Positions 1 through 10,894 of a stretch of 10,894 bases of DNA are shown in pieces. Source of the stretch: a virus. Taxonomy: Duplodnaviria; Heunggongvirae; Uroviricota; Caudoviricetes. Every line of letters begins with the position of its first letter. The first letter of the stretch is position 1. The notes under the pieces are model-generated. The model was given only the letters and a program-made list of their open reading frames with translations, did no database searches and was not told the origin of the DNA. The position numbers were made by a program, and so were the translations under genes. The stretch lies in IMG/VR virus record IMGVR_UViG_2660238349_000010; one strand, written 5' to 3'.

Positions 1-660
1 ATGGATCGTATAGTTAGTTCTTCACATGACCGTACATCGCTGCTTAGCACCCATAAGGTGCTGCGTAATACCTATTTTCTGCTGAGCCTGACGCTGGCCT
101 TTTCGGCGATTACCGCAACTGCCAGTACGGTGCTGATGCTGCCATCTCCGGGTCTGATTCTGACGCTGGTGGGTATGTATGGTTTGATGTTCCTGACCTA
201 TAAAACGGCGAATAAGCCGACCGGGATTATCTCCGCATTCGCCTTTACCGGTTTTCTGGGTTATATCCTCGGACCAATTCTGAATACCTATCTGTCTGCC
301 GGAATGGGTGACGTAATCGCTATGGCACTGGGCGGAACGGCGTTAGTGTTCTTCTGCTGCTCCGCATATGTGCTGACCACCCGCAAAGATATGTCGTTCC
401 TCGGCGGTATGCTGATGGCGGGTATTGTGGTGGTGCTGATTGGTATGGTTGCTAATATCTTCCTGCAACTGCCTGCTCTGCATCTGGCGATCAGCGCGGT
501 CTTCATTCTGATCTCCTCTGGCGCTATTTTGTTTGAAACCAGCAACATCATTCATGGCGGTGAAACGAACTATATTCGTGCCACGGTTAGCCTGTATGTT
601 TCGCTGTACAACATCTTCGTCAGCCTGCTGAGCATTCTGGGCTTCGCCAGCCGCGATTAA
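1..660 (+). CDS. yccA: Inner membrane protein YccA (BAX inhibitor-1/TMBIM family, FtsH modulator); host chromosomal gene
   Basis: Complete 219-aa ORF from ATG at base 1 to TAA at 658-660. Strongly hydrophobic multi-pass protein. Translation [28 protein letters not shown]... recognised from memory as enterobacterial YccA; not confirmed by search. Confidence 0.88.
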
Positions 661-694
661 TCTCGCCCAGGGTTACTTACCGAGCCTCGCTTTA

Positions 695-781
695 TGATGC
701 GCCGCGCGATAAATGCACTCTATCTTGTGCGATAAATGGCATCCACGCGGCGTTTCATTATTTGAAAAAGAATTACATTTC
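695..781. repeat. Putative transposable-phage right end (attR-like) with MuA-binding-site-like motifs
   Basis: Plus strand from 695 reads TGATGCGCCGCGCGATAAATGC... The first 22 bp match my recollection of the phage Mu right terminus (TGAAGCGGCGCACGAAAAACGC) at 17 of 22 positions. CGATAAATG occurs at 707-715 and again at 730-738, the second copy at almost the same distance from the end as the CGATAAATG block of Mu R2. A CGTTTCAT motif lies at 751-758. Comparison is from memory, not alignment. Confidence 0.5.
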
Positions 782-1345
782 AGGTTGCGTTATGACAGTC
801 CCAACAGGGTGGTAGCGGTAGATCGTTGACAGTCCAATATCATAGATAATTGCCAGCCGCTTTCTGTCATACCCTTTCTGGAGCAATCTTGCGATCTGCT
901 CATGCTGCTCCTTCGTCAGTTTCGGGCGACGTCCTCCAACTCTTCCTTGTGCTCGCGCAGCAGCCAGTCCTGCCAGCGTGCGCTCAACTATCAGTTCACG
1001 CTCCATTTCTGCCAGTGCACCCATCATATGAAAAAAGAACCTTCCCATCGGAGTGCTGGTATCGATTGAATCCGTCAGACTGCGAAAATTGACACCTTTT
1101 GCGCGTAGCTCTTCTGTGAGAGCAATGAGGTGTTTCATTCTTCTACCCAACCGATCCAGCTTCCAGACCACCAATGTATCCCCTCTTTTAAGGCACTTTA
1201 AAGCGCGTTTCAGGCCTGGTCGTTCCGACTTGGTTCCGCTCATTTTGTCCTCAAAAATCTGTTCACATCCTGCGCACATTAATGCATTGCGTTGCAAATC
1301 TGTGTTTTGGTCATTTGTTGACACACGTATGTAGCCAATCAGCAT
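773..1345 (-). CDS. pin: Serine recombinase, DNA invertase (Pin/Gin/Hin/Cin family)
   Basis: 190-aa product from ATG (minus) at 1345-1343, preceded by AGGGAG. N-terminus MLIGYIRVSTNDQNTDLQRNAL... with catalytic-serine motif, and C-terminal HTH region ...ELIVERTLAGLAAARAQGRVGGRRPKLT... typical of Hin/Gin invertases. The ORF-track extension to 1474 is rejected because the conserved invertase N-terminus starts at 1345 and the extension would run through the crossover site. Confidence 0.9.
   Translation of the reverse strand: MLIGYIRVSTNDQNTDLQRNALMCAGCEQIFEDKMSGTKSERPGLKRALKCLKRGDTLVVWKLDRLGRRMKHLIALTEELRAKGVNFRSLTDSIDTSTPMGRFFFHMMGALAEMERELIVERTLAGLAAARAQGRVGGRRPKLTKEQHEQIARLLQKGYDRKRLAIIYDIGLSTIYRYHPVGTVITQPEM
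1250..1335. promoter_or_regulatory. Putative Fis-dependent recombinational enhancer inside the 5' end of the invertase gene (position inferred by analogy)
   Basis: In Hin/Gin systems the enhancer lies in the first ~100 bp of the invertase coding sequence. The corresponding pin segment (sense: GTGTCAACAAATGACCAAAACACAGATTTGCAACGCAATGC) closely resembles what I recall of the hin enhancer region. Fis sites were not individually identified. Confidence 0.3.
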
Positions 1346-1399
1346 TAAAAATACTCCCTTTTGAGTGGTTAAAGTACTGAGATAATGTGGGGAGGATTT

Positions 1400-1425
1400 G
1401 AGAGATAAACGTTGGTTTGGGGGAA
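1400..1425 (+). other. Crossover site 1 (hix/gix-like, 12-bp half-sites around a 2-bp TT core), orientation +
   Basis: GAGAGATAAACG TT GGTTTGGGGGAA. Lies about 55 bp upstream of the pin start and exactly at the 5' boundary of cassette C. The right half-site is identical to that of site 3 on the opposite strand. Confidence 0.6.
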
Positions 1426-1920
1426 GGCTCTGCACTGCCTGTTGGTGTGCCTGTTCCATGGCCCACCGCCACACCGCCAGCAGGCTGGTTAAAGTGCGAC
1501 GGGCGCGCCTTTACAAAAGAACAATATCCTGTTCTGGCCAGAGTCTACCCGACCCTCCGTCTTCCCGATTTGCGCGGTGAGTTTATCCGTGGATGGGACG
1601 ACGGGCGCAAAGTTGATACGGGGCGTTCATTGCTAAGTGGTCAGGCTGCAACATTTATTCGTACAGCTTTGCAGGATTATTACGGTTACGATCTGAATAC
1701 TAATGTCAAAGTAGGTATCGCTTTTGCTACTGCTGATTCTGTTATAACCGTTGGAAACCCAGCTAATCCTAAAGCAGGAAATAATAGCGATTATGTTCCT
1801 GCATCAGCAGATAACTCTATAACGGGTATTCAAAGGACAGCGGAGGATAATTTTACCGGGGCATGGATATCAATGCGCCCCCGCAATGTTGCGTTTAATT
1901 ACATCGTAAGGGCCGCATAA
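1414..1920 (+). CDS. Silent alternative tail-fibre C-terminal cassette C (collar-domain tip); no start codon of its own, promoterless in this orientation
   Basis: Open frame from the site-1 core to TAA at 1918-1920 encoding GLGEGSALPVGVPVPWPTATPPAGWLKCDG...RPRNVAFNYIVRAA. The first ~70 aa and last ~14 aa are shared with the expressed fibre tip; the middle is divergent. Confidence 0.75.
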   Translation, partial: GLGEGSALPVGVPVPWPTATPPAGWLKCDGRAFTKEQYPVLARVYPTLRLPDLRGEFIRGWDDGRKVDTGRSLLSGQAATFIRTALQDYYGYDLNTNVKVGIAFATADSVITVGNPANPKAGNNSDYVPASADNSITGIQRTAEDNFTGAWISMRPRNVAFNYIVRAA

Positions 1921-1939
1921 AAACGTTGGTTTAGGAGAA
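1914..1939 (+). other. Crossover site 2 (hix/gix-like), orientation + (direct relative to site 1, inverted relative to site 3)
   Basis: CGCATAAAAACG TT GGTTTAGGAGAA. Overlaps the stop codon of cassette C and is the 5' boundary of cassette B. Confidence 0.55.
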
Positions 1940-2443
1940 GGCTCGGCGCTACCCGTTGGTGTGCCTGTTCCGTGGCCCACCGCCACACCGCCAGCAGGCT
2001 GGTTACAGTGCAACGGAGCTACGTTCACTAAAGAACAATATCCTGTTCTGGCCAGAGTCTACCCGACCCTCCGTCTTCCCGATTTACGCGGTGAGTTTAT
2101 CCGTGGATGGGACGACGGGCGCAAAGTTGATACAGGACGTAAGTTGCTGTCCGCACAAGGGGCAACGCTGTTAAGAACAGCAATGCTGGATTATTATAAC
2201 CAGGACACTACGGGAACCTCGGGGATAGTCGGCATGGGATTCAACAATGAAGATTCCATTACAGACCTTCGTGAGGGCAGCTTTAAAATGCCGGACGGGA
2301 CAACATTCAGCGATCCTGTCGTGGCAATGTCAGACAATGGTATGCAGGCTACTATTCTGACCTCTATCAGAAGCGGGTATGCGAAGGGTATCACTGTCAG
2401 ACCCCGTAGCATTGCACTTAATTACATTGTGAGGGCAGTTTAA
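1928..2443 (+). CDS. Silent alternative tail-fibre C-terminal cassette B (collar-domain tip), translationally coupled to the downstream tfa
   Basis: Open frame from the site-2 core encoding GLGEGSALPVGVPVPWPTATPPAGWLQCNGATF...RPRSIALNYIVRAV. Its TAA at 2441-2443 overlaps the tfa ATG at 2443 by 1 nt (TAATG). Its first ~200 bp are nearly identical to the reverse complement of 3330-3541. Confidence 0.75.
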   Translation, partial: GLGEGSALPVGVPVPWPTATPPAGWLQCNGATFTKEQYPVLARVYPTLRLPDLRGEFIRGWDDGRKVDTGRKLLSAQGATLLRTAMLDYYNQDTTGTSGIVGMGFNNEDSITDLREGSFKMPDGTTFSDPVVAMSDNGMQATILTSIRSGYAKGITVRPRSIALNYIVRAV

Positions 2444-3057
2444 TGAGTAACACTGCAGTTCTGGATGAAAACGGTATCGCCACTGTAGCGGGCGAGATCA
2501 CTGTATATCACTATGACGAGGAAACCCGGGAATACACCTCATCCTCTGTGGAGTATCTCGCCCTTGGGGTGGGTACTCCGGCACATTCGTGCGCCGATGC
2601 ACCGCCGGAGGCAATTTCGGGTTACGTGGTTTGCCGGACTGCCACGCTGAACGGGTGGGAGCATGTGCCTGATCACCGCGGCGAGACGGTATACAGCACG
2701 GAGAACGGTAACCCCGTTCTGATTACCCAACCGGGTGATTACCCGGCGGACACCACCACAAAACAGCCGGCCACGCCATGGGATACCTGGAACGGTGAGG
2801 CGTGGGTAACCGATACTGAACGGCAGCGAGCCGCAGAACTGGAGGTTGCCAGACAGCAACGCCAGCAACGGGTGAAACAGGCGATGGCGTCCGTCGATCT
2901 TATCAACCTCAAACTGCGTGCTGGTCGCAGTCTGACACCAGAAGAAACGGCAAAACTGAACGCCGTGCTGGATTATATCGACGAGCTGAACGCACTGGAT
3001 ATCAGCACGGCACCTGAAATCAGCTGGCCGGAAGCGCCACTGGCACTTGCCAGCTGA
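2443..3057 (+). CDS. tfa: Tail fibre assembly protein (Tfa/gpG/U-like chaperone), cognate to cassette B
   Basis: 204-aa ORF immediately after cassette B with stop/start overlap. Size, position and acidic C-terminal region (…LNAVLDYIDELNALD…) fit the tail-fibre-assembly family. Converges on the fibre gene, stop to stop, with a 6-bp gap. Confidence 0.7.
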   Translation: MSNTAVLDENGIATVAGEITVYHYDEETREYTSSSVEYLALGVGTPAHSCADAPPEAISGYVVCRTATLNGWEHVPDHRGETVYSTENGNPVLITQPGDYPADTTTKQPATPWDTWNGEAWVTDTERQRAAELEVARQQRQQRVKQAMASVDLINLKLRAGRSLTPEETAKLNAVLDYIDELNALDISTAPEISWPEAPLALAS

Positions 3058-3063
3058 ACGGTA

Positions 3064-4656
3064 TCACGCCGCCCTCACGATATAGTTAAACGCGATATTG
3101 CGGGGGCGGGTTATGTTAAAGAATGCTCCGTTTAATTCGGCTTTTGCGCGACTGTTTGTTCCACCCAGAATTGCGTACCACAAATAATCGCTACGGTAAT
3201 TCCCCGCAAACACCTTATCGCCGCCATAGTCAATATTATTTCCGTTACTCATGTACGAGATATCCAGCGAAGAATCGTTATCGTCATGACCGCCGACCAG
3301 TGTACCTTTCTGCCATGAAAGCAACTTACGCCCCTCGTCAATCTTGCGCCCGTCGTCCCATCCACGGATAAACTCACCGCGTAAATCGGGAAGACGGAGG
3401 GTCGGGTAGACTCTGGCCAGAACAGGATATTGTTCTTTGGTGAACGTAGCTCCGTTGCACTGTAACCAGCCTGCTGGCGGTGTGGCGGTGGGCCACGGAA
3501 CAGGCACACCAACAGGCAATGCAGAGCCTTCCCCCAAACCAAGGTAATTGAGGACATCTTTTATACTGCCCTTAGCGATAATAGCGCGACCAATAGCTGT
3601 AAGGGTTGCCAGCGCTGCGCGGTCTGCTCCGGTAAAATAAGGCAACCGATCTGCTGCAGTGGCAAGTCCTGCCAGAGCAGTGAGCGTGGCATCTGCCGGT
3701 TGTTTTCCGTTTGCCAGATCGTATGCAGCCTTGACCGCTTTCGGTGTGGCGGCCAGTATTTCAGACGTGCTGTTGATGGCACTGCTCAATTGTATGGTGC
3801 CTTTTGCCGTCAGCGAGGCAGCAGGCACTCCCGTTATCTGACTCCACGGGTGAGTGTGGCTGACGGGCGCCTTGCCGGCTGCAAGGTCGTATGCAGCCTT
3901 GACCGCCTTCGGCGTGGCAGCCTCAGTTTCTGATTGACTGTCCGTGGCGCTGCTCAGTTGTACGGTGCCTTTTGCCGTCAGCGAGGCAGCAGGCACTCCC
4001 GTTATCTGACTCCACGGGTGAGTGTGGCTGACGGGGGCCTTGCCGGCAGCCAGGTCATATGCAGCCTTGACGGCCTTTGGTGTGGCGGCCAGCGTTTCAG
4101 AGGTGCTGTTGGTGGCACTGCTCAGTTGTACGATCCCTTTACGGGTCGTTGTTGCATCCTGGGCTGTGTATTTTCCCCGGGCCAGATCATACGCGATTTT
4201 CACAGCCTTCGGCGTGGCAGCCTCAGTTTCTGATTGACTGTCCGTGGCACTGCTCAGCTGTACGGTGCCTTTTGCCGTCAGCGAGGCAGCAGGCACTCCC
4301 GTTATCTGACTCCACGGGTGAGTGTGACTGACGGGTGCCTTGCCGGCTGCAAGGTCGTATGCAGCCTTGACGGCTTTTGGTGTGGCGGCCAGCGTTTCAG
4401 AGGTGCTGTTGGTGGCACTGCTCAGTTGGGTGAACCCCTTAGCTGTCAGTGTCGCGTCCGGGTGGTTACGGGAACGTACGTGTTCAGCCAGTGACTGTGC
4501 GGCTTCCTCCGTTTTTTTCTTCAGCCATTTCGTCCTGTTTGCCAGTTGCCGGGGGGCTCGATTTGATATCCCGTCAGCACCACCCAGAACCGGATCTGAT
4601 GTCTCCAGTTGATAGATTTTTTCTTCCCACTTTTCTGTTTCATTCAGGTTTCCCAT
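3064..4656 (-). CDS. Tail fibre protein (P2 gpH-like N-terminus and shaft repeats; collar-domain C-terminal tip = cassette A currently fused)
   Basis: 530 aa from ATG (minus) at 4656-4654; the ORF track starts 2 codons earlier at TTG 4662. Overlaps the gpI stop. Five copies of the motif TAKGxxQLSSATxSxSETxAATPKAVKxAYDLAxGK, and ...KQPADATLTALAGLATAADRLPYFTG..., recalled as characteristic of P2 H. C-terminal 159 aa after site 3 form the variable tip. Confidence 0.9.
   Translation of the reverse strand: MGNLNETEKWEEKIYQLETSDPVLGGADGISNRAPRQLANRTKWLKKKTEEAAQSLAEHVRSRNHPDATLTAKGFTQLSSATNSTSETLAATPKAVKAAYDLAAGKAPVSHTHPWSQITGVPAASLTAKGTVQLSSATDSQSETEAATPKAVKIAYDLARGKYTAQDATTTRKGIVQLSSATNSTSETLAATPKAVKAAYDLAAGKAPVSHTHPWSQITGVPAASLTAKGTVQLSSATDSQSETEAATPKAVKAAYDLAAGKAPVSHTHPWSQITGVPAASLTAKGTIQLSSAINSTSEILAATPKAVKAAYDLANGKQPADATLTALAGLATAADRLPYFTGADRAALATLTAIGRAIIAKGSIKDVLNYLGLGEGSALPVGVPVPWPTATPPAGWLQCNGATFTKEQYPVLARVYPTLRLPDLRGEFIRGWDDGRKIDEGRKLLSWQKGTLVGGHDDNDSSLDISYMSNGNNIDYGGDKVFAGNYRSDYLWYAILGGTNSRAKAELNGAFFNITRPRNIAFNYIVRAA
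3529..3554 (-). other. Crossover site 3 (hix/gix-like) inside the fibre gene at the constant/variable junction
   Basis: Minus strand reads TCCTCAATTACC TT GGTTTGGGGGAA, encoding LNYLGLGE. The core TT sits in the same codon positions as in sites 1 and 2, so either inversion gives an in-frame fusion. Confidence 0.6.
3700..4450 (-). repeat. In-frame coding tandem repeats of the fibre shaft (units of 36/56/44/56/56 aa)
   Basis: Near-identical DNA blocks, for example about 3900-4030 versus 4200-4330 (about 130 bp with about 3 mismatches, 300 bp apart). Visible in the ORF track as a repeating plus-strand shadow ORF (MTVRG[A/T]AQLYGAFCRQRGSRHSRYLTPRVSV...) at 3934 and 4234. Confidence 0.85.
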
Positions 4657-4658
4657 AA

Positions 4659-5237
4659 TCAACTGCTCCCGTGGTTATAACTGCCATCATGGATGGCGGT
4701 ATTGTTATAGCGAATGGCCACAGACTGATACTCCAGGCTGGCCAGATGGCAGCGGGCCGGTGCAAATGCAGCGAGCGTCTGACGCAGCATCGCGGCCTGA
4801 TCGTTAGTAATGGGCTGTTTCAGAATAACGCGATAAACCGCCCAGGCGGCTGCATCTCCATGAACAAACAGTCCGTTATAGCTGCGATTGCCGTCGTAAC
4901 TGAGACGACCTGTGCCTTCAATCAGATCCACTTCACCAAAGCCAAAACGGCGGATAACTTCCCGGATTGACCACGGCGTCCCTTTATACCGGTGTAGTTC
5001 GATGGCTGCTTTTATAAGCATGCGGCGAACATCGTCCGATTCCGCCAGCTCCCAGCCATCGCCAGACAGTGAGAACTGCTCGCCCAGCCATGGCAGCGCA
5101 GAACTGTCGACGATATCGACGAGAAAGACCATCAGTACGCTCAGGTCGATGTTATCCAGCCGCCCTGCCAGTCTTCCCAGCGTCCTGAGACTGATATCAC
5201 CCTCAAGCGGTGGCGGGAGTTGTAATGGCTCAGTCAT
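4659..5237 (-). CDS. Baseplate/tail protein gpI-like (Mu gp48 position)
   Basis: 192 aa from ATG at 5237-5235 (ORF track starts at GTG 5249). The ATG overlaps the gpJ-like stop (ATGACTGA). Position between the J-like gene and the fibre gene matches P2 I and Mu gp48. Family call from synteny and size. Confidence 0.7.
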   Translation of the reverse strand: MTEPLQLPPPLEGDISLRTLGRLAGRLDNIDLSVLMVFLVDIVDSSALPWLGEQFSLSGDGWELAESDDVRRMLIKAAIELHRYKGTPWSIREVIRRFGFGEVDLIEGTGRLSYDGNRSYNGLFVHGDAAAWAVYRVILKQPITNDQAAMLRQTLAAFAPARCHLASLEYQSVAIRYNNTAIHDGSYNHGSS

Positions 5238-6333
5238 CAGACACTCCACTCATGTTAAGTGTGATCGCCGTACAGTTTGCCCATTCGTTTTCTGCCACCA
5301 CCCTCAGTGCCGGTGTCACCAGTTCAACCTGGTACACCCCGGAAACGGACAATGCACTGATAATCTGGCTGGGGACAATATCACGCCCCAGCGTGGCGGC
5401 ACGTGATGCCACCCAGTTCTGTATGGCGCTGTTAGCGGCATCTTTTACAGACCTGGCATCCTGATCACGATAGATCGTAATCCTGGCTTCAATGGTGTAA
5501 TCCACCTTCACTGGTGTTTTAGCCCGCACTGTATCAGTGAGTGGCCTGACTTTCTCATCAGAGCAGAAACTCTCTACCAGCGTGAGAACACCGCCGTCCG
5601 GCAGACCGGTACTGAGCAGCGGATACAGATCTACGGTCCCGGGAACCGGGGAAAGCACAGCAACATCGACAATGTTGGGATGGGCCTGCATGGCATGAAA
5701 GCGGTATGCGCCACGGCTTCCGGCATTGGTGAATGACTCCGGGGCCAGCCTGATACGCTCCCGGAGCCTGTCATCGTCTTCCTGTTCTGAACCGCCGGAA
5801 CTGGCCGTCAGATTGCTCACCAGCAGGTCGACGTTATCAATCTCATCGAGTAACTGACTGACCTGCGCAGGTTGCCAGCCGTTACCAGCGGTACCGGGTT
5901 CGGTACAGGTGGACGTGACATTGACCAGCAGCAATCCGGCCTTCAGTACCACATCTGTATCGGTGGCAAAAATAACGCTGTCGGAAGCGCTGACGCGGGT
6001 GCCTGCCGGGATCAGCACATCAATGGTCAGTGCCTCATCCACAGAGAACTGAAGTGTGGTGGTGGCAGGCTGCGCGGCAAGGCGGTATACACCAACCAGT
6101 TCTCCGAGGTAATCAATCATCGGCTCTCGTGAAAAGGCGACCAGATTCTGCTTTGCTGCCTCCTGTACCGCAACCCTGACCAGCATTTCGCGATAGGCCC
6201 ACAGATCAATCAGCAGACGTTCTGCCTGTGCCGGGTACAGCGTTTTGCCGGTATCCGCTTCATACTTCGCAATCATTTCTGCCGTGATTTTGTCGGCATC
6301 GCGTTCAATAAAATCGGGTTCTGTCAGCGCCAT
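5230..6333 (-). CDS. Baseplate assembly protein gpJ-like (Mu gp47 position)
   Basis: 367-aa ORF whose start overlaps the gpW-like stop by 10 nt. Size and position fit baseplate J. Family call from synteny and size, moderate. Confidence 0.75.
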   Translation of the reverse strand: MALTEPDFIERDADKITAEMIAKYEADTGKTLYPAQAERLLIDLWAYREMLVRVAVQEAAKQNLVAFSREPMIDYLGELVGVYRLAAQPATTTLQFSVDEALTIDVLIPAGTRVSASDSVIFATDTDVVLKAGLLLVNVTSTCTEPGTAGNGWQPAQVSQLLDEIDNVDLLVSNLTASSGGSEQEDDDRLRERIRLAPESFTNAGSRGAYRFHAMQAHPNIVDVAVLSPVPGTVDLYPLLSTGLPDGGVLTLVESFCSDEKVRPLTDTVRAKTPVKVDYTIEARITIYRDQDARSVKDAANSAIQNWVASRAATLGRDIVPSQIISALSVSGVYQVELVTPALRVVAENEWANCTAITLNMSGVSDD

Positions 6334-6671
6334 AGCAACTCCTGAGTCCGGGTCTGTCCGTCTGAGCCTTTCCAGCTCACCCGGAGCGTAAGATGTTCGC
6401 CGTCGACGGCGGGTTTAACTGACATAAGCTGGCAGCGGGGCTCCCAGCGTCGGATGGCATCGACGGATTCGCGCACCACATGCGGAATGGCCCGGTCTAC
6501 AGGCCAGTCGATATAAAGATGCAGATTGCTGCCGAACTCCGGGCGATGCGGGTCGCTGCCGCGGGGAGTCCGCAGGATAATTTGAATCGCCTGCCGGATA
6601 TCATCCAGCCCCCGGACAATTTCGCCGGGAGCCTGCAGGGTCGGTTGCCAGAATACTGAGGTTGTTTTCAT
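6324..6671 (-). CDS. Baseplate protein gpW / gp25-like (Mu gp46 position)
   Basis: 115-aa ORF, the typical size of the GPW_gp25 family, sitting between the spike and J-like genes. Confidence 0.75.
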   Translation of the reverse strand: MKTTSVFWQPTLQAPGEIVRGLDDIRQAIQIILRTPRGSDPHRPEFGSNLHLYIDWPVDRAIPHVVRESVDAIRRWEPRCQLMSVKPAVDGEHLTLRVSWKGSDGQTRTQELLWR

Positions 6672-6689
6672 GGGGGCAGTATTGCCCCC
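6672..6689 (-). promoter_or_regulatory. Perfect 7-bp stem / 4-nt loop hairpin abutting the gpW-like start codon (possible RBS-sequestering structure)
   Basis: GGGGGCA gtat TGCCCCC at 6672-6689, inside the only real intergenic gap (54 nt) of the tail operon and directly 5' of the ATG at 6671-6669 on the mRNA. Not followed by a U-tract, so not a terminator. Confidence 0.4.
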
Positions 6690-6725
6690 GTGCGGGAACG
6701 CTGATATTAAAGGCGTTTAAAAAGC

Positions 6726-7322
6726 TCAGTGGGAGTGGTGGCTGGAGTTTTCGCCATCAGACAACATACTGCCCGTGGCATGGGCATTCCCTTTAATCTC
6801 GATATTGCCATGGATGGTCGCGGTAACACCTTCACCACCAGAACCCGCCATGCCTCCTTCGTAAATCAGCTTACCCCTGACACGCAGATCTCCGGTAAGT
6901 TCGGTTTCCGGTGCGTCAATCGTGGCTTTCTGTGTTTTCAATACCACATCAGCACCACACTCAATGACAATATGCTCAATGCCGCCCCGGATGATCAGAG
7001 TGTGCGTCTTCCGGTTGTAGCTGTACTCTGCACCATCAGCAAACCGGGTTCCCCGGATATTTTTGTCACTGAACGGTGGTTTATCGACGTCTGAATACAC
7101 CGCGCCCAGAATAACACCATCCTCGCCGTTGGCATCGAGCAGCACCTCAACCTGCTCCCCCACGTCAGGGAGCCAGTAATCTTTGTTATCCTGGGTATTG
7201 CGCTGCAGCACGTTAAGCCAGTTTGTGCGCAGGTTATCGCATTCAGGCAGACGAACGCGGGCCTGAACCCTGTCGGCATCAACGGCACTGACCGTACCGA
7301 CCTGACGAGTGACACCAGTCAT
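6726..7322 (-). CDS. Baseplate spike protein gpV-like (Mu gp45 position)
   Basis: 198-aa ORF whose ATG overlaps the gpD-like stop (ATGA). Size matches Mu gp45 / P2 V spikes. C-terminus ends ...SDGENSSHHSH (His cluster). Confidence 0.75.
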   Translation of the reverse strand: MTGVTRQVGTVSAVDADRVQARVRLPECDNLRTNWLNVLQRNTQDNKDYWLPDVGEQVEVLLDANGEDGVILGAVYSDVDKPPFSDKNIRGTRFADGAEYSYNRKTHTLIIRGGIEHIVIECGADVVLKTQKATIDAPETELTGDLRVRGKLIYEGGMAGSGGEGVTATIHGNIEIKGNAHATGSMLSDGENSSHHSH

Positions 7323-8491
7323 TTTTTCTTCTCTCTTATTACTGTGGACGTGCTGCCGTCCGGTTTATAGATGGTCAGCATCCGGGTTTTGCCGATTTTT
7401 TTACCTTTCTTCGCCTTGCCCTGTGTGATCGGCCCCCGTGCCACTTCCAGCTCTGTGGTGTAGCCGCTGTTACGGTCAAACGCATGGCGGGCAGTGGTTA
7501 TGAGCCATGGCCCGGATAACTGCCCAAAACCCACCAGTTCAATTTTGTTGCCTGCTGTCAGTTGAGGTGTTCCCGTCAGCGTCAGGGAGCCGTTCTGCTG
7601 GTATTCGTTATGTCTGGCCAGTGCTGAATCCGCTTTAATCCGGGCACTGTCCGGGTCGCTGACGCGGCTGTTAACTTTAAGTGAGTCAGCGCTGGTAACC
7701 TTACCACCTTTGAGCTTTTTGTCGCTTTCACGGGTACCACCATCAGCTTCGTAGACGATCAGTTTTTTACTGCTGCTTTTCTGGTGTTTTACCTTTGCAG
7801 ATTTATAGACCCGGTTGATGGTGTCACGCAGGGAAAAGCGGGCCACATCCTGCGGTTTTAACTGCCTGACCGGCTCCTGACTGCGCAGTGTGGCCAGATG
7901 AGAAAAAATCAGCTGGTCACTGACCACTTTCACTGCATAACCATACTCGCTGGCCAGCCGGCGCAGAAAACCCACGTCGGTTTCAGCATACTGGGTCACC
8001 CGGTCGATTCTGATGGACTCAATGCTGCCCACCAGTTTCAGCCGGTGCTTTCTGGCAATCCGCCCCGCAACAGCTGCCAGCGTGGTGTTCTCAAAACCAC
8101 GACTGGTTTTAGTCCGCAGGGCACTGTTAACCGAGGTGGCCACCCCACGGATAGAAACAACGGAAGCGGGCGAACTCACTTCGATCTCGTCTATAGAGAA
8201 CGTACCGCAGGACAGCAGCTTCTCGTCCTGATAGCCCATTTTCAGCGTCAGCGTGTCACCCTTGCCCGGATACCACTTATCCAGCCAGCGGCCATCGGTG
8301 TCGTCCAGCTCCACCTCAATGGTATCGGACTCATTTTTGATGTTATCGCTCCAGGTCACACGGGTGACATAAGGCGCGATATCAGAGGTGATGTTTTTCT
8401 GCAGATACCACAGAGTGAACACCGGTGTCAGCACATCGCTGACGCCGGTTAACGCTGATGTGACTTGCGCAGTGCTGTTTATCTCAGCCAT
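7319..8491 (-). CDS. Baseplate hub / late control protein gpD-like (Mu gp44 position)
   Basis: 390-aa ORF, close to the 387 aa of P2 gpD. C-terminal ...NSGYTTELEVARGP... resembles the gpD family. Sits between gpX-like and the spike. Confidence 0.8.
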   Translation of the reverse strand: MAEINSTAQVTSALTGVSDVLTPVFTLWYLQKNITSDIAPYVTRVTWSDNIKNESDTIEVELDDTDGRWLDKWYPGKGDTLTLKMGYQDEKLLSCGTFSIDEIEVSSPASVVSIRGVATSVNSALRTKTSRGFENTTLAAVAGRIARKHRLKLVGSIESIRIDRVTQYAETDVGFLRRLASEYGYAVKVVSDQLIFSHLATLRSQEPVRQLKPQDVARFSLRDTINRVYKSAKVKHQKSSSKKLIVYEADGGTRESDKKLKGGKVTSADSLKVNSRVSDPDSARIKADSALARHNEYQQNGSLTLTGTPQLTAGNKIELVGFGQLSGPWLITTARHAFDRNSGYTTELEVARGPITQGKAKKGKKIGKTRMLTIYKPDGSTSTVIREKKK

Positions 8492-8691
8492 GGGGCAATA
8501 TCCTCTTCTGTACGGGCTTCTTCAGCCTCAATCACCGGGATCAGTAACAACAGCCCGGAGGGCAGCACCGGCGTGATGGCCACGTGCGGATTGGCGGCAA
8601 TAATCCGGGGATAGCCCAGCGGGTCACCGTAGTACTGCCATGCCAGCGAATCCCAGCGCTCTCCGTCACGGGTAACATGTTCAAGAAACAT
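8479..8691 (-). CDS. Tail protein X-like (LysM-like small tail protein)
   Basis: 70 aa from ATG at 8691-8689, overlapping the gpU-like stop (TGATG). Pattern ...DSLAWQYYGDP...IIAANP...LPSG... fits P2 gpX (about 67 aa). Confidence 0.65.
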   Translation of the reverse strand: MFLEHVTRDGERWDSLAWQYYGDPLGYPRIIAANPHVAITPVLPSGLLLLIPVIEAEEARTEEDIAPWLR

Positions 8692-9575
8692 CACACACTC
8701 CTCGTCAGTATTCTGGCGGCCATTGCACTTAATCCCGGAGACATGCGGTTGAATGCTGTTCCGACGGCGTTAAGCTGCCCGGAAACGGTATCCAGAGCAC
8801 CTGCAATATTTCTTTTGTCCACACCACTCAGCGCAGACTGTGCCTGCTGTACATACGTGGCTGCTTCGCTGGCTGTTCTGGCCAGACTGATGGCATCGGG
8901 CATGGATTCAGAGAGTGCGTTAAACGCCGGAACACTTTTCCCCAGAGCCCCGGAGATATTACCCAGTCCGCTCATCAGCCCCGGCACACGGGTCAGTGCG
9001 ACAACGGGGTTATCCTTCATTTTCTGTGTCACTCGAACGGCGCTGATAGTGGTCTGGAGTACAGACTGCGCCTGTTTCGCATAGTTGACGCCGTTGCGGA
9101 TGAACTGCGCCATCCCGGAAGGTGAAGGAATGGCACCGGAGACCGCCCCGACACCCGGGAGCTTCGTGCGTATTGCCGGTGGTTGCAGAGGATTTTTCGG
9201 GTCACCGGTGTATTCCCGGAGAGACACGGTGGCACTGACAGCCAGCACGTTGCCGGTACTGTCAGTCTGCTCGCTGGTTGCAGTCACATCGGTAATCACG
9301 AACCAGCCGCGATAGTCACCGTTGCCGAAGACCAGCGCCAGTGCCTGATGGGCTTTCATGGCTGTTCGCAGTCTCGCCAGCTCCACATCGGGTACACAAT
9401 AATGCTGATGGAAAACCAGAGTTATCTGGATTTCGTCCAGCCTGTCGCCGACGAACTGCAGGCCAGGCTTACCCCCGATGCGGGCATGCTCCGCATAATC
9501 GACGCCGAACGTGGCCTCGAAGCCGTCCCAGTAGGTAATCAGCTCAAACTCAATATCACCCAGTACGGCAAACAT
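8691..9575 (-). CDS. Tail protein with gpU-like N-terminal domain plus ~160-aa Ala/Ser/Gly-rich C-terminal extension
   Basis: 294-aa ORF whose ATG overlaps the tape-measure stop (ATGA). N-terminal ~130 aa (LGDIEFEL...QFVG...GWFVITDV...LREY) fits the P2 gpU tail-formation pattern. It occupies the slot of Mu N, after the tape measure. Confidence 0.65.
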   Translation of the reverse strand: MFAVLGDIEFELITYWDGFEATFGVDYAEHARIGGKPGLQFVGDRLDEIQITLVFHQHYCVPDVELARLRTAMKAHQALALVFGNGDYRGWFVITDVTATSEQTDSTGNVLAVSATVSLREYTGDPKNPLQPPAIRTKLPGVGAVSGAIPSPSGMAQFIRNGVNYAKQAQSVLQTTISAVRVTQKMKDNPVVALTRVPGLMSGLGNISGALGKSVPAFNALSESMPDAISLARTASEAATYVQQAQSALSGVDKRNIAGALDTVSGQLNAVGTAFNRMSPGLSAMAARILTRSV

Positions 9576-10894
9576 CAGCGGTACTCCTTACGTTGTTTCT
9601 GAGCCAGCAGACGCTCCAGCATTTTTTCCAGCTCATGCAGACTCATATTCAGGGCACCAGTCAGTCCTGCAGGCGCTGTGGTTTCCCTGCCATTGAGGAA
9701 AAACTGAGGATTAAAGCTGACCTGGATACCACCAGACGTTCCACCGCCGGTTGCAGCTGCACCACGGCCTGAATATCCGGCAGCCAGGATTTCAGGCGAG
9801 GGGATACGGGGAACATCCGGTGTCATCTCATTTGCCAGACGTTGCCCTGGTAAAATCGATGCCCGGGTGGAGAGCGGAATAACGGGCATGGAAGACAAAC
9901 TATTGATTACGGCTCCGATCGCATTTTTAGCAGACGACATAAACCCATTGATATCGGGCAACGGCATACTGAAGCGAACACCTGAAGTGTTATCCCGTAT
10001 TTCTGGCCCCTGAATGCTCACGGGCATTCTGGGGAGCAGTTCACTGGCCATTCGCTGCCCGGCCAGAGCTGCAAGCGGAGTGGTCCGCTGCAGGCCAATG
10101 GCGGCCCCCTGCGCGATATTGTCACCAAAGCCCATAAACACGCGGCTCGGCGAATGAATGCCCAGCTTTTCGCTGAACCAGCCACTGATGCTGTCACCCA
10201 TTCCGGTTACACTGGATTTGAGCGACTCCCATTTGTTTTTGATACCGTTAATCAGACCGTCGACAAGATGGCCACCGAAGTCGGTGAACTTTGCCGGCAG
10301 ATCAACACCAAGATATTTCAGCGCAGCTGCAAAGGCTTTATAGAGCAGACCTGCCGGCGACCAGTTAATCAGCAGCTTACCAGTTCCCGCGATACCGCCG
10401 TTAAAGGCTTCCTGAATGTCAGCCCAGCACTGTTTAAACCAGCTACTGATGCTGTCACCCATTCCGGTTACACTGGATTTGAGCGACCCCCATTTGTTTT
10501 TGATACCGTTAATCAGACCGTCGATAAGATGGCCACCGAAGTCGGTGAACTTTGCCGGCAGAGCAACGCCGAAATATTTCAGCGCAGCCGCAAAGGCTTT
10601 ATAGAGCAGGCCTGCCGGCGACCAGTTAATCAGCAACTTACCAATTCCCACAATGCCGCCGTTAAAGGCTTCCTGAATGTCAGCCCAGCGCTGTTTAAAC
10701 CAGCTACTGATGCTGTCACCCATTCCGGTTACACTGGATTTGAGCGACCCCCATTTGATTTTGATACCGTTAATCAGACCGTCGATAAGATGGCCACCGA
10801 AGTCGGTGAACTTTGCCGGCAGAGCAACGCCGAAATATTTCAGCGCAGCCGCAAAGGCTTTATAGAGCAGGCCTGCCGGCGACCAGTTAATCAG
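9575..10894 (-). CDS. Tail tape measure protein, 3' part (5' end lies beyond the window)
   Basis: Long minus-strand frame open to the window edge, directly upstream of the gpU/X/D genes. Contains 87-aa tandem repeats and a Gly/Ala-rich C-terminal region. Assignment rests on synteny and repeat architecture. Confidence 0.7.
   Translation of the reverse strand: MINWSPAGLLYKAFAAALKYFGVALPAKFTDFGGHLIDGLINGIKIKWGSLKSSVTGMGDSISSWFKQRWADIQEAFNGGIVGIGKLLINWSPAGLLYKAFAAALKYFGVALPAKFTDFGGHLIDGLINGIKNKWGSLKSSVTGMGDSISSWFKQCWADIQEAFNGGIAGTGKLLINWSPAGLLYKAFAAALKYLGVDLPAKFTDFGGHLVDGLINGIKNKWESLKSSVTGMGDSISGWFSEKLGIHSPSRVFMGFGDNIAQGAAIGLQRTTPLAALAGQRMASELLPRMPVSIQGPEIRDNTSGVRFSMPLPDINGFMSSAKNAIGAVINSLSSMPVIPLSTRASILPGQRLANEMTPDVPRIPSPEILAAGYSGRGAAATGGGTSGGIQVSFNPQFFLNGRETTAPAGLTGALNMSLHELEKMLERLLAQKQRKEYR
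10174..10894 (-). repeat. 261-bp (87-aa) in-frame tandem repeat array within the tape-measure gene, truncated by the window end
   Basis: Units at about 10174-10434, 10435-10695 and 10696-10894+ with only a few substitutions. Seen in the ORF track as plus-strand shadow ORFs at 10158, 10416 and 10677, all containing ...LNQ[L/P]LMLSPIPVTLDLSD... Confidence 0.85.

Follow-up and report, generated by a model that had tools for sequence, protein, structure and literature searches.

We are highly confident that 695-777 forms the right end of a temperate 37.2-kb phage of the BcepMu/B3 type, apparently complete, which in E. coli M-17 transposed into the terminator loop of yccA. Termini of the form 5'-TG...CA-3', a 6-bp target-site duplication, an empty site, varied insertion sites and a set of transposition genes are all observed directly. 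The boundary of the prophage is fixed to the base (window position 695; element length 37,211 bp; duplication GCTTTA), and the element belongs with the BcepMu/B3 type rather than with Mu. The original prediction, made from the letters of this DNA, had proposed a Mu-like right end inserted next to yccA with a 5-bp duplication. Its substance was right, but two points need correcting: the duplication measures 6 bp, and the family is BcepMu/B3, not Mu.

The window, by which we mean the whole 10,894-nucleotide stretch that was analysed, matches the minus strand of the E. coli M-17 record NZ_CP068394.1 at 10,893 of its 10,894 bases, and the single mismatch may reflect another assembly or a subclone of the same strain. 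In M-17 the 37,211-bp prophage is located between tusE and yccA. The part of it that lies in the window carries the invertase, the invertible tail-fibre segment, the tail fibre, baseplate genes and a partial tape-measure gene, and the prophage extends past the window. The features of the yccA junction and of the right end are collected in Table 1.

Table 1. Features of the yccA-prophage junction and the adjoining prophage DNA (window coordinates).
Feature	Coordinates	Strand	Basis or remarks
yccA (FtsH protease modulator), host gene	1..660	+	RefSeq annotation of NZ_CP068394.1
Host DNA 3' of yccA	661..694	+	682-690 (GAGCCTCGC) is the terminator 5' arm
Right-hand copy of target-site duplication GCTTTA (record strand TAAAGC)	689..694	.	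Left flank ...CGCATAAAGC/TGATT, right flank CATCA/TAAAGC/GAGG; empty site has one copy
Right 10.2 kb of the 37,211-bp BcepMu/B3-type transposable prophage	695..10894	-	Annotation, BcepMu-like gene layout, element sizes
Right-end (attR-equivalent) region: 5'-TG, two repeated sites, third conserved block	695..777	+	Identical in nine E. coli insertions; multi-phage alignment
Site R1 core GCGATAAATG, putative transposase-binding site	706..715	+	Offset 12-21; exact repeat, cross-phage conservation
Site R2 core GCGATAAATG, putative second transposase-binding site	729..738	+	Offset 35-44; same basis as R1
Inner arm of imperfect inverted repeat with the tip	746..758	+	694-706 ATGATGCGCCGCG with 746-758 CGCGGCGTTTCAT; 13 nt, 85% complementary
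Third conserved block AAAAGAATTACA	766..777	+	Offset 72-83; overlaps invertase stop codon 773-775
Gin/Cin-type serine DNA invertase, 190 aa	773..1345	-	Pfam Resolvase + HTH_7; phrog_125 DNA invertase; 77% identity to Mu Gin
Invertible tail-fibre segment	1409..3545	.	226-229-nt inverted repeats; annotation

By inspection of the window, the plus strand from 695 reads TGATGCGCCGCGCGATAAATGC, and base 695 is exactly the right terminus of the prophage (5'-TG), the cleaved 3' end being the minus-strand CA. On the record strand the yccA-side boundary reads ...GCGCATCA/TAAAGC/GAGG, and the other boundary, on the tusE side, reads ...CGCATAAAGC/TGATTAGACTTGAGATAAATGAC. This second end, which had been expected beyond the window, lies 37.2 kb away, starts 5'-TG and has the same flanking bases. 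We searched 5,426 complete E. coli genomes with a 600-nt empty-site query in which both flanks were joined through a single TAAAGC. The tusE-yccA empty site was contiguous in 5,424 of these genomes, with 100% identity in the strains that matched best, LF82 and E2348/69 among them. The yccA-prophage junction itself was found in M-17 only among the 5,426 genomes, which bears out the earlier proposal that the insertion beside yccA is strain-specific.

Nine independent insertions, the M-17 copy and eight others, were compared across both ends. Their sites are yccA/tusE, csiE, a reverse-transcriptase gene, cpsG/wcaJ, zntB, gcd, prpR, hycH and lom, the last of these belonging to another prophage. 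In all nine the element starts TGATTAG... and ends ...GGCGCATCA, and the homology boundary corresponds exactly to 695, the base at which the original prediction had placed the tip. A 6-bp direct repeat flanks every one of the nine insertions and is different at every site (TAAAGC, TATACC, TGAAGG, CATAGC, ATAACC, CGTGAC, CGTCGG, AACAGA and GCACAT), nine duplications being too few to derive a target-site consensus. Because a 6-bp repeat is present at all nine, the duplication beside yccA is GCTTTA (689-694), and the CTTTA (690-694) put forward earlier is one base short. The nine copies are near-identical at their ends, so that conservation within the species is uninformative on constraint.

Beyond these nine, the left 784 bp of the element was found in 641 of the 5,426 complete genomes, beside many different host genes. 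The variety of insertion sites, together with the differing 6-bp flanks, indicates transposition and not site-specific integration. About 12% of complete E. coli genomes contain BcepMu/B3-type phages, which often interrupt genes (gcd, prpR, csiE, zntB, hycH) and are thereby a source of strain-to-strain knock-outs. On the M-17 chromosome a left-end query (Mor-gp16) matched three places and a right-end/invertase query two, and M-17 may harbour further copies or fragments of related transposable prophages.

These data allow us to propose a mechanism for the insertion. TnpA (589 aa, with an rve core) would bind the G(C/A)GATA(A/T)(A/T)T repeats at offsets 12-20 and 35-43 of both ends, synapse the two ends and nick 3' of the terminal CA. 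With its AAA+ partner, the ExeA-like TnpB and analogue of MuB, presenting the target DNA, TnpA would join the two 3'-OH ends to target phosphates with a 6-bp stagger, and gap repair or replication would then produce the GCTTTA duplication.

A real insertion of a transposable phage might by now be an immobile, decaying remnant, its end a fossil rather than a working site. Many copies are indeed decaying: IS66-family elements (ISCro1, ISEc23) sit inside the prophage copies of two other strains (L002 1781-4396; L007 19096-21512), and the IAI39 copy (L009) has internal stops in three genes. Such damage in other strains lends the idea some weight, but we consider it unlikely for M-17, where the copy keeps both termini, both duplications, full-length genes without pseudogene flags and a typical length of 37.2 kb (the nine copies range from 36.9 to 39.8 kb, the largest carrying IS66). 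Its restriction to M-17 among the 5,426 genomes implies a recent event, and the transposases of the phage isolates PhiKM and Phi06_2974 B are 94-99% identical to that of the element. In M-17, a strain used for probiotic production, a seemingly intact prophage could in principle cause insertional mutations and package host DNA.

The slot between repressor and holin holds variable cargo (M-17, L001 16750-19000; L003 25678-28653; L004 25840-29463; L008 9087-12062). In M-17 it contains three genes of no assigned function and an 'ABC transporter ATPase', and in other copies a DNA adenine methylase, a nucleoid-associated protein and further unassigned genes.

The genes of the element include Mor, GemA/gp16, Gam, an AAA+ ATPase (AAA_22), a 589-aa rve transposase, a Ner-like protein and a repressor. 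The early operon runs leftward, with Mor at the left tip, and the lysis, head and contractile-tail genes run rightward, finishing with the tail fibre, the invertible segment and the invertase. This layout is the plan of BcepMu and B3, not that of Mu. We searched 50,697 phage records with TnpA by tblastn. Over 98-100% of its length, TnpA was 68.7% identical to the transposase of BcepMu, 69.5% to that of phiE255 and 56.6% to that of B3; identity was 43% for phiSHP3 and about 40% for two cyanophages. The search matched 69 phage records, among which PhiKM and Phi06_2974 B were the only ones from Escherichia and Mu was absent. PhiKM, a nearly identical phage whose TnpA is 98.8% identical, is filed in GenBank under Bcepmuvirus, the genus of BcepMu and phiE255.

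In relatives of BcepMu the ends are TG...CA and the rve transposase is Tn552-related (PMC2628397). TG-CA ends are found in Mu-like and B3-like phages, and B3 makes a 6-bp duplication, the footprint of B3/Tn552-family transposases (PMC8705779). The E. coli element combines a homologous TnpA and an adjacent ExeA-like AAA+ TnpB with TG...CA termini and a 6-bp flanking repeat (PMC8705779, PMC2628397), with many unrelated insertion sites and an empty site (641 genomes; nine sites crossed; 5,424/5,426 empty), and with a genome of 36-39 kb that has an inverted early operon and Mor and GemA at its left end. It is a BcepMu/B3-type transposable phage, a member of a known family common in E. coli; as an ordinary member of a described family, it leaves the current understanding of transposable phages unchanged.

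The transposase speaks against a true relative of Mu (Muvirus: Mu, D108, SfMu), in which MuA would bind the repeats and the duplication would be the 5-bp CTTTA, and we regard this reading as very improbable. Pfam detected rve only in the transposase, with no Mu-specific domains; raising E to 10 added a weak HTH_8 match at residues 30-48. BLASTP of TnpA against MuA gave no significant similarity (E = 0.48), hhalign of a shallow five-sequence TnpA profile against MuA gave a probability of 0.1%, and phmmer of TnpA against all PDB chains returned weak matches to retroviral-integrase cores and no MuA or TnsB. The tblastn search, as described above, returned BcepMu-, B3- and related phages, with Mu outside the 69 records. 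The common ground with MuA is phrog_310, which TnpA matches over profile positions 129-687 and MuA over 6-639, TnpA being without the first ~125 positions. In the same way TnpB and MuB both match phrog_296, and the TnpB gene (AAA_22) adjoins that of TnpA. The link between TnpA and MuA is that of a PHROG remote-homology family, and homology of the end-binding domains is taken also from published structure predictions of other members. The predicted fold of such a TnpA is nearest to MuA, with two end-binding domains and without an enhancer-binding domain (PMC8705779). MuA has the enhancer-binding domain and Mu-specific Pfam domains, in contrast to the E. coli TnpA, which has Pfam rve only.

The likeness to Mu is most evident at the tip of the end. 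Our reference was the Mu right end in AF083977 as its reverse complement (TGAAGCGGCGCACGAAAAACGC...; read inward, TGAAGCGGCGCACGAAAAACGCGAAAGCGTTTCACGATAAATGCG). The tip at 695 matches this end at 17 of 22 terminal positions, a score that no other of the 21,746 22-mers on the two strands of the window equalled (the runner-up, 15, occurred once), and none of 200,000 shuffles reached 17. The deposited Mu sequence confirms the match of 17 in 22 given in the original prediction. The similarity is at the tip only: in individual alignment with Mu it amounts to these 17 of 22 positions, and blastn of the right end against the phage collection found none of Mu, D108 and SfMu with E raised to 10. Inward of the tip, CGATAAATG lies at offsets 13-21 and 36-44 here and at 35-43 in Mu R2, so that the repeated block, said earlier to recur at nearly the same offset, is one base off its position in Mu. 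Mu R1 and R2 carry ACGAAAAAC at offset 12-20 and ACGATAAAT at 34-42, and we take these blocks of AF083977 to be MuA sites.

The genes behind the tip also recall Mu, as the original prediction had pointed out. The tail genes follow the Mu order, and the invertase at the genome edge shares 77% identity with Gin. Between the tip and the end of the invertase ORF at 773 there are only 78 bp (695-772), too little for com or mom, again as predicted. Mu likewise has TG...CA ends, and its first two sites, with the related core CGAWAAA, lie at close to the same offsets; it too has an AAA+ target-binding partner, Mor, GemA and Gam, the same tail gene order and a Gin-type invertase at the right end. It differs from the E. 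coli element in its duplication (5 bp versus 6 bp), in its site spacing (22 nt versus 23 nt), in early genes that are collinear with the late genes where those of the E. coli element are inverted, and in having com and mom, both of which the E. coli element lacks. Mu proper is marked by a 5-bp duplication, MuA-family transposase domains, nucleotide similarity across attR, and a left-end repressor with collinear early and late genes and gin-com-mom. Set against these, the E. coli element has a 6-bp duplication in 9/9 insertions, phrog_310 as its common ground with MuA, 17/22 identity at the tip only and, from the Mu gene plan, a Gin-like invertase.

Because the transposase is of the BcepMu/B3 (Tn552-related) type and not of the MuA type, the repeats are not MuA-binding sites, as had been supposed, but the equivalent sites of a very distant relative. 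The description of the element as a Mu-like transposable phage stands in the broad sense (transposition, TG...CA, Mor/GemA/Gam) and fails where it would mean a MuA-type transposase. On comparison of the sequences, the best explanation for the likeness to Mu R1/R2 is an end architecture common to very distantly related transposases, and not close kinship with Mu.

BcepMu has the same layout as the E. coli element, with Mor-GemA-...-TnpB-TnpA-...-Ner-like leftward from a central repressor and lysis, head and tail genes rightward, and it has the same TG...CA termini and two-site ends at the same offsets. It differs in carrying an acyltransferase gene at the right end in place of the Gin-like invertase and invertible segment, in its repressor-holin cargo, and in its ends, whose identity to those of the E. 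coli element is only ~16/22 to 28/50. B3 (Beetrevirus) is like the E. coli element in its inverted early operon, ExeA-like TnpB, TG...CA ends and 6-bp duplication (PMC8705779). Its end sites lie at offsets 12-20 and 34-43; it is of the siphovirus type, with other tail genes and internal com/dam-like genes, and its nucleotide similarity to the E. coli element is confined to short end motifs. Tn552 is a 6.5-kb staphylococcal resistance transposon, not a phage, and we liken it to the E. coli element by description rather than by sequence comparison. Each end of Tn552 has two directly repeated ~23-bp transposase sites, and its duplications are of 6-7 bp. The transposase family is related to that of Tn552 (PMC2628397, PMC8705779), and the BcepMu gene note reads 'Tn552/IS1604 rve transposase'.

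The original prediction had also named, as a finding that would overturn it, a prophage bounded by an integrase and an att core. Site-specific integration near yccA by the serine recombinase beside the end is extremely improbable: its gene does lie 78 bp from the junction, but the protein is a 190-aa invertase of the Gin/Cin type, paired with an invertible tail-fibre segment, and the annotation of the element contains no tyrosine or large serine integrase. In place of a common att core at a fixed locus, the flanks differ everywhere; the sites are different in every genome examined and often inside genes, and the 6-bp flanks at nine of nine are unrelated. That the similarity to the Mu end is a coincidence in ordinary intergenic DNA 3' of yccA has next to no probability, the shortness of the match being all that speaks for it, since 695-780 is missing from the yccA-tusE spacer of 5,424/5,426 genomes and so is not native there, homology breaks off precisely at 695 in nine genomes, and 17/22 is the best of 21,746 scores.

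Within the right end of the BcepMu/B3-type prophage, GCGATAAATG is an exact 10-nt direct repeat with a spacing of 23 nt. The end is conserved relative to phage Phi06_2974 B up to 777 and divergent beyond. For the E. coli element, BcepMu, B3 and phiSHP3 our alignment included the left and the right terminus, and for the cyanophage Lsp-JY19 a single one. It took no termini from phiE255, whose record is circularly permuted, or from YO107_2, whose record begins somewhere other than a phage end. The aligned ends have a common plan: they open with 5'-TG, carry a core G-(C/A)-G-A-T-A-(A/T)-(A/T)-T at offset 12-20 and have another core at 34/35-43. The Lsp-JY19 end is 81% identical to window 699-740, with a TnpA that is 41% identical. 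Phi06_2974 B, with a TnpA 93.7% identical, keeps both cores around a diverged R1-R2 spacer. Conservation of the cyanophage end, divergence of the Phi06_2974 B spacer and the presence of the Mu R1/R2 cores at like offsets together argue that the cores are under selection. The repeats at 706-715 and 729-738 are probable transposase-binding sites, an assignment that draws on comparison of five phage lineages and on analogy with Mu R1/R2.

A broader reading would be that the TG and the G-M-GATAAAT-type cores (offsets 12-20 and 35-43) have stayed near-unchanged from Mu through BcepMu/B3-type phages to a cyanophage, while the transposases diverged beyond detection by BLAST. This layout would span enterobacteria, Burkholderia, Pseudomonas, Stenotrophomonas and a cyanophage, and we judge this reading to be improbable. 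If it were true, ends and transposases of different lineages might cross-react, and a resident transposable phage or transposon could mobilise the ends of another, or orphan ends such as the P1-like relic described below.

Such a relic of the same right end is present in the P1-like Punavirus vB_EcoM-673R5 (ON470615.2 64046-64110; L022 1501-1565), where it reads TGATGTGCCGCGCGATAAATGTAC...AAGATAAAT...CGCGGCATT. The relic directly adjoins a split hin-like invertase gene, 75.5% identical to the window invertase, and its similarity to the right end stops exactly at the TG tip. This suggests either an old insertion or the exchange of an invertase/tail-fibre module that carried the transposon end along. 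The Leptolyngbya phage Lsp-JY19 end lies at about 35611-35656 of PP438411.1 (L023 1735-1780), and the record runs ~1.7 kb past this terminus; the extra ~1.7 kb may be packaged host DNA or a product of permuted assembly.

Two further elements lie inward of the repeats. The first is the inner arm at 746-758. RNA of the minus strand, the sense of the invertase, folds over the inverted repeat at -41.8 kcal/mol (z = -2.87), and the P1-like relic has one paired change within the repeat, C6>T with G58>A. The R3 site of Mu stands in inverted orientation, which the inverted inner repeat of the E. coli element recalls. The arm might represent a third site, inverted as in Mu R3, or else belong to a 3' hairpin of the invertase mRNA that would serve as terminator or stabiliser. 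The second element is the third conserved block, to which similar right-end blocks correspond at the same offset in B3 (AAAAGAATTTCA), BcepMu (GAAAGAAATTGCA) and phiSHP3 (GAATGAAATTGCA). An Rfam search of 500-1500 gave no match, promoter and terminator consensus scans of 560-1500 found none, and the structure of plus-strand RNA across the junction was not unusual (z = -1.4). The end region has a single small ORF (713-829, 38 aa), which looks spurious.

The insertion has split a host terminator. In the predicted fold of RNA from the empty site, GAGCCUCGC pairs with GCGGGGCUU across the loop UUUAU to give a 9-bp G+C-rich hairpin, and UUUGUUUUUU comes after it; by this fold it is a standard intrinsic terminator for yccA. 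The prophage is inserted in the loop and separates the 5' arm (682-690), which stays with yccA, from the 3' arm and T-run, displaced 37 kb to the prophage left end (L001 7753-7816). A consensus scan of 560-1500 in the occupied window found no terminator-like site downstream of yccA. The left end of the prophage is 63 bp upstream of the tusE start codon, with the leftward Mor operon pointing at tusE. The insertion may alter the expression of yccA and tusE, or may allow antisense read-through into the invertase gene.

The invertible segment next to the invertase holds two alternative fibre C-termini on the plus strand (1417-1920 and 1961-2443) together with the gene for a chaperone (2443-3057); the constant fibre part is encoded on the minus strand at 3064-4662. 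The repeats at 1409-1634 and 1923-2151 are 90-93% complementary to 3317-3545. Each fibre cassette opens with one of these 226-229-nt inverted repeats of 3317-3545, which is part of the constant fibre gene. The tail-fibre region is a multi-cassette switch rather than a simple G-segment, and its arrangement varies among the nine E. coli copies. The tail-fibre gene also contains internal repeats at 3712-4428, with a 168-bp period in 2.6 copies at 3712-4140 and a 224-bp pair, 96% identical, at 3905-4128 and 4205-4428. In the tape-measure gene, window 10176-10894 comprises 2.8 tandem copies of a 261-bp unit, 96% matching. This gene is 3,213 nt long in M-17 and 2,952 nt in most other copies, a difference of exactly one unit, and the additional unit predicts a longer tail for the M-17 phage.
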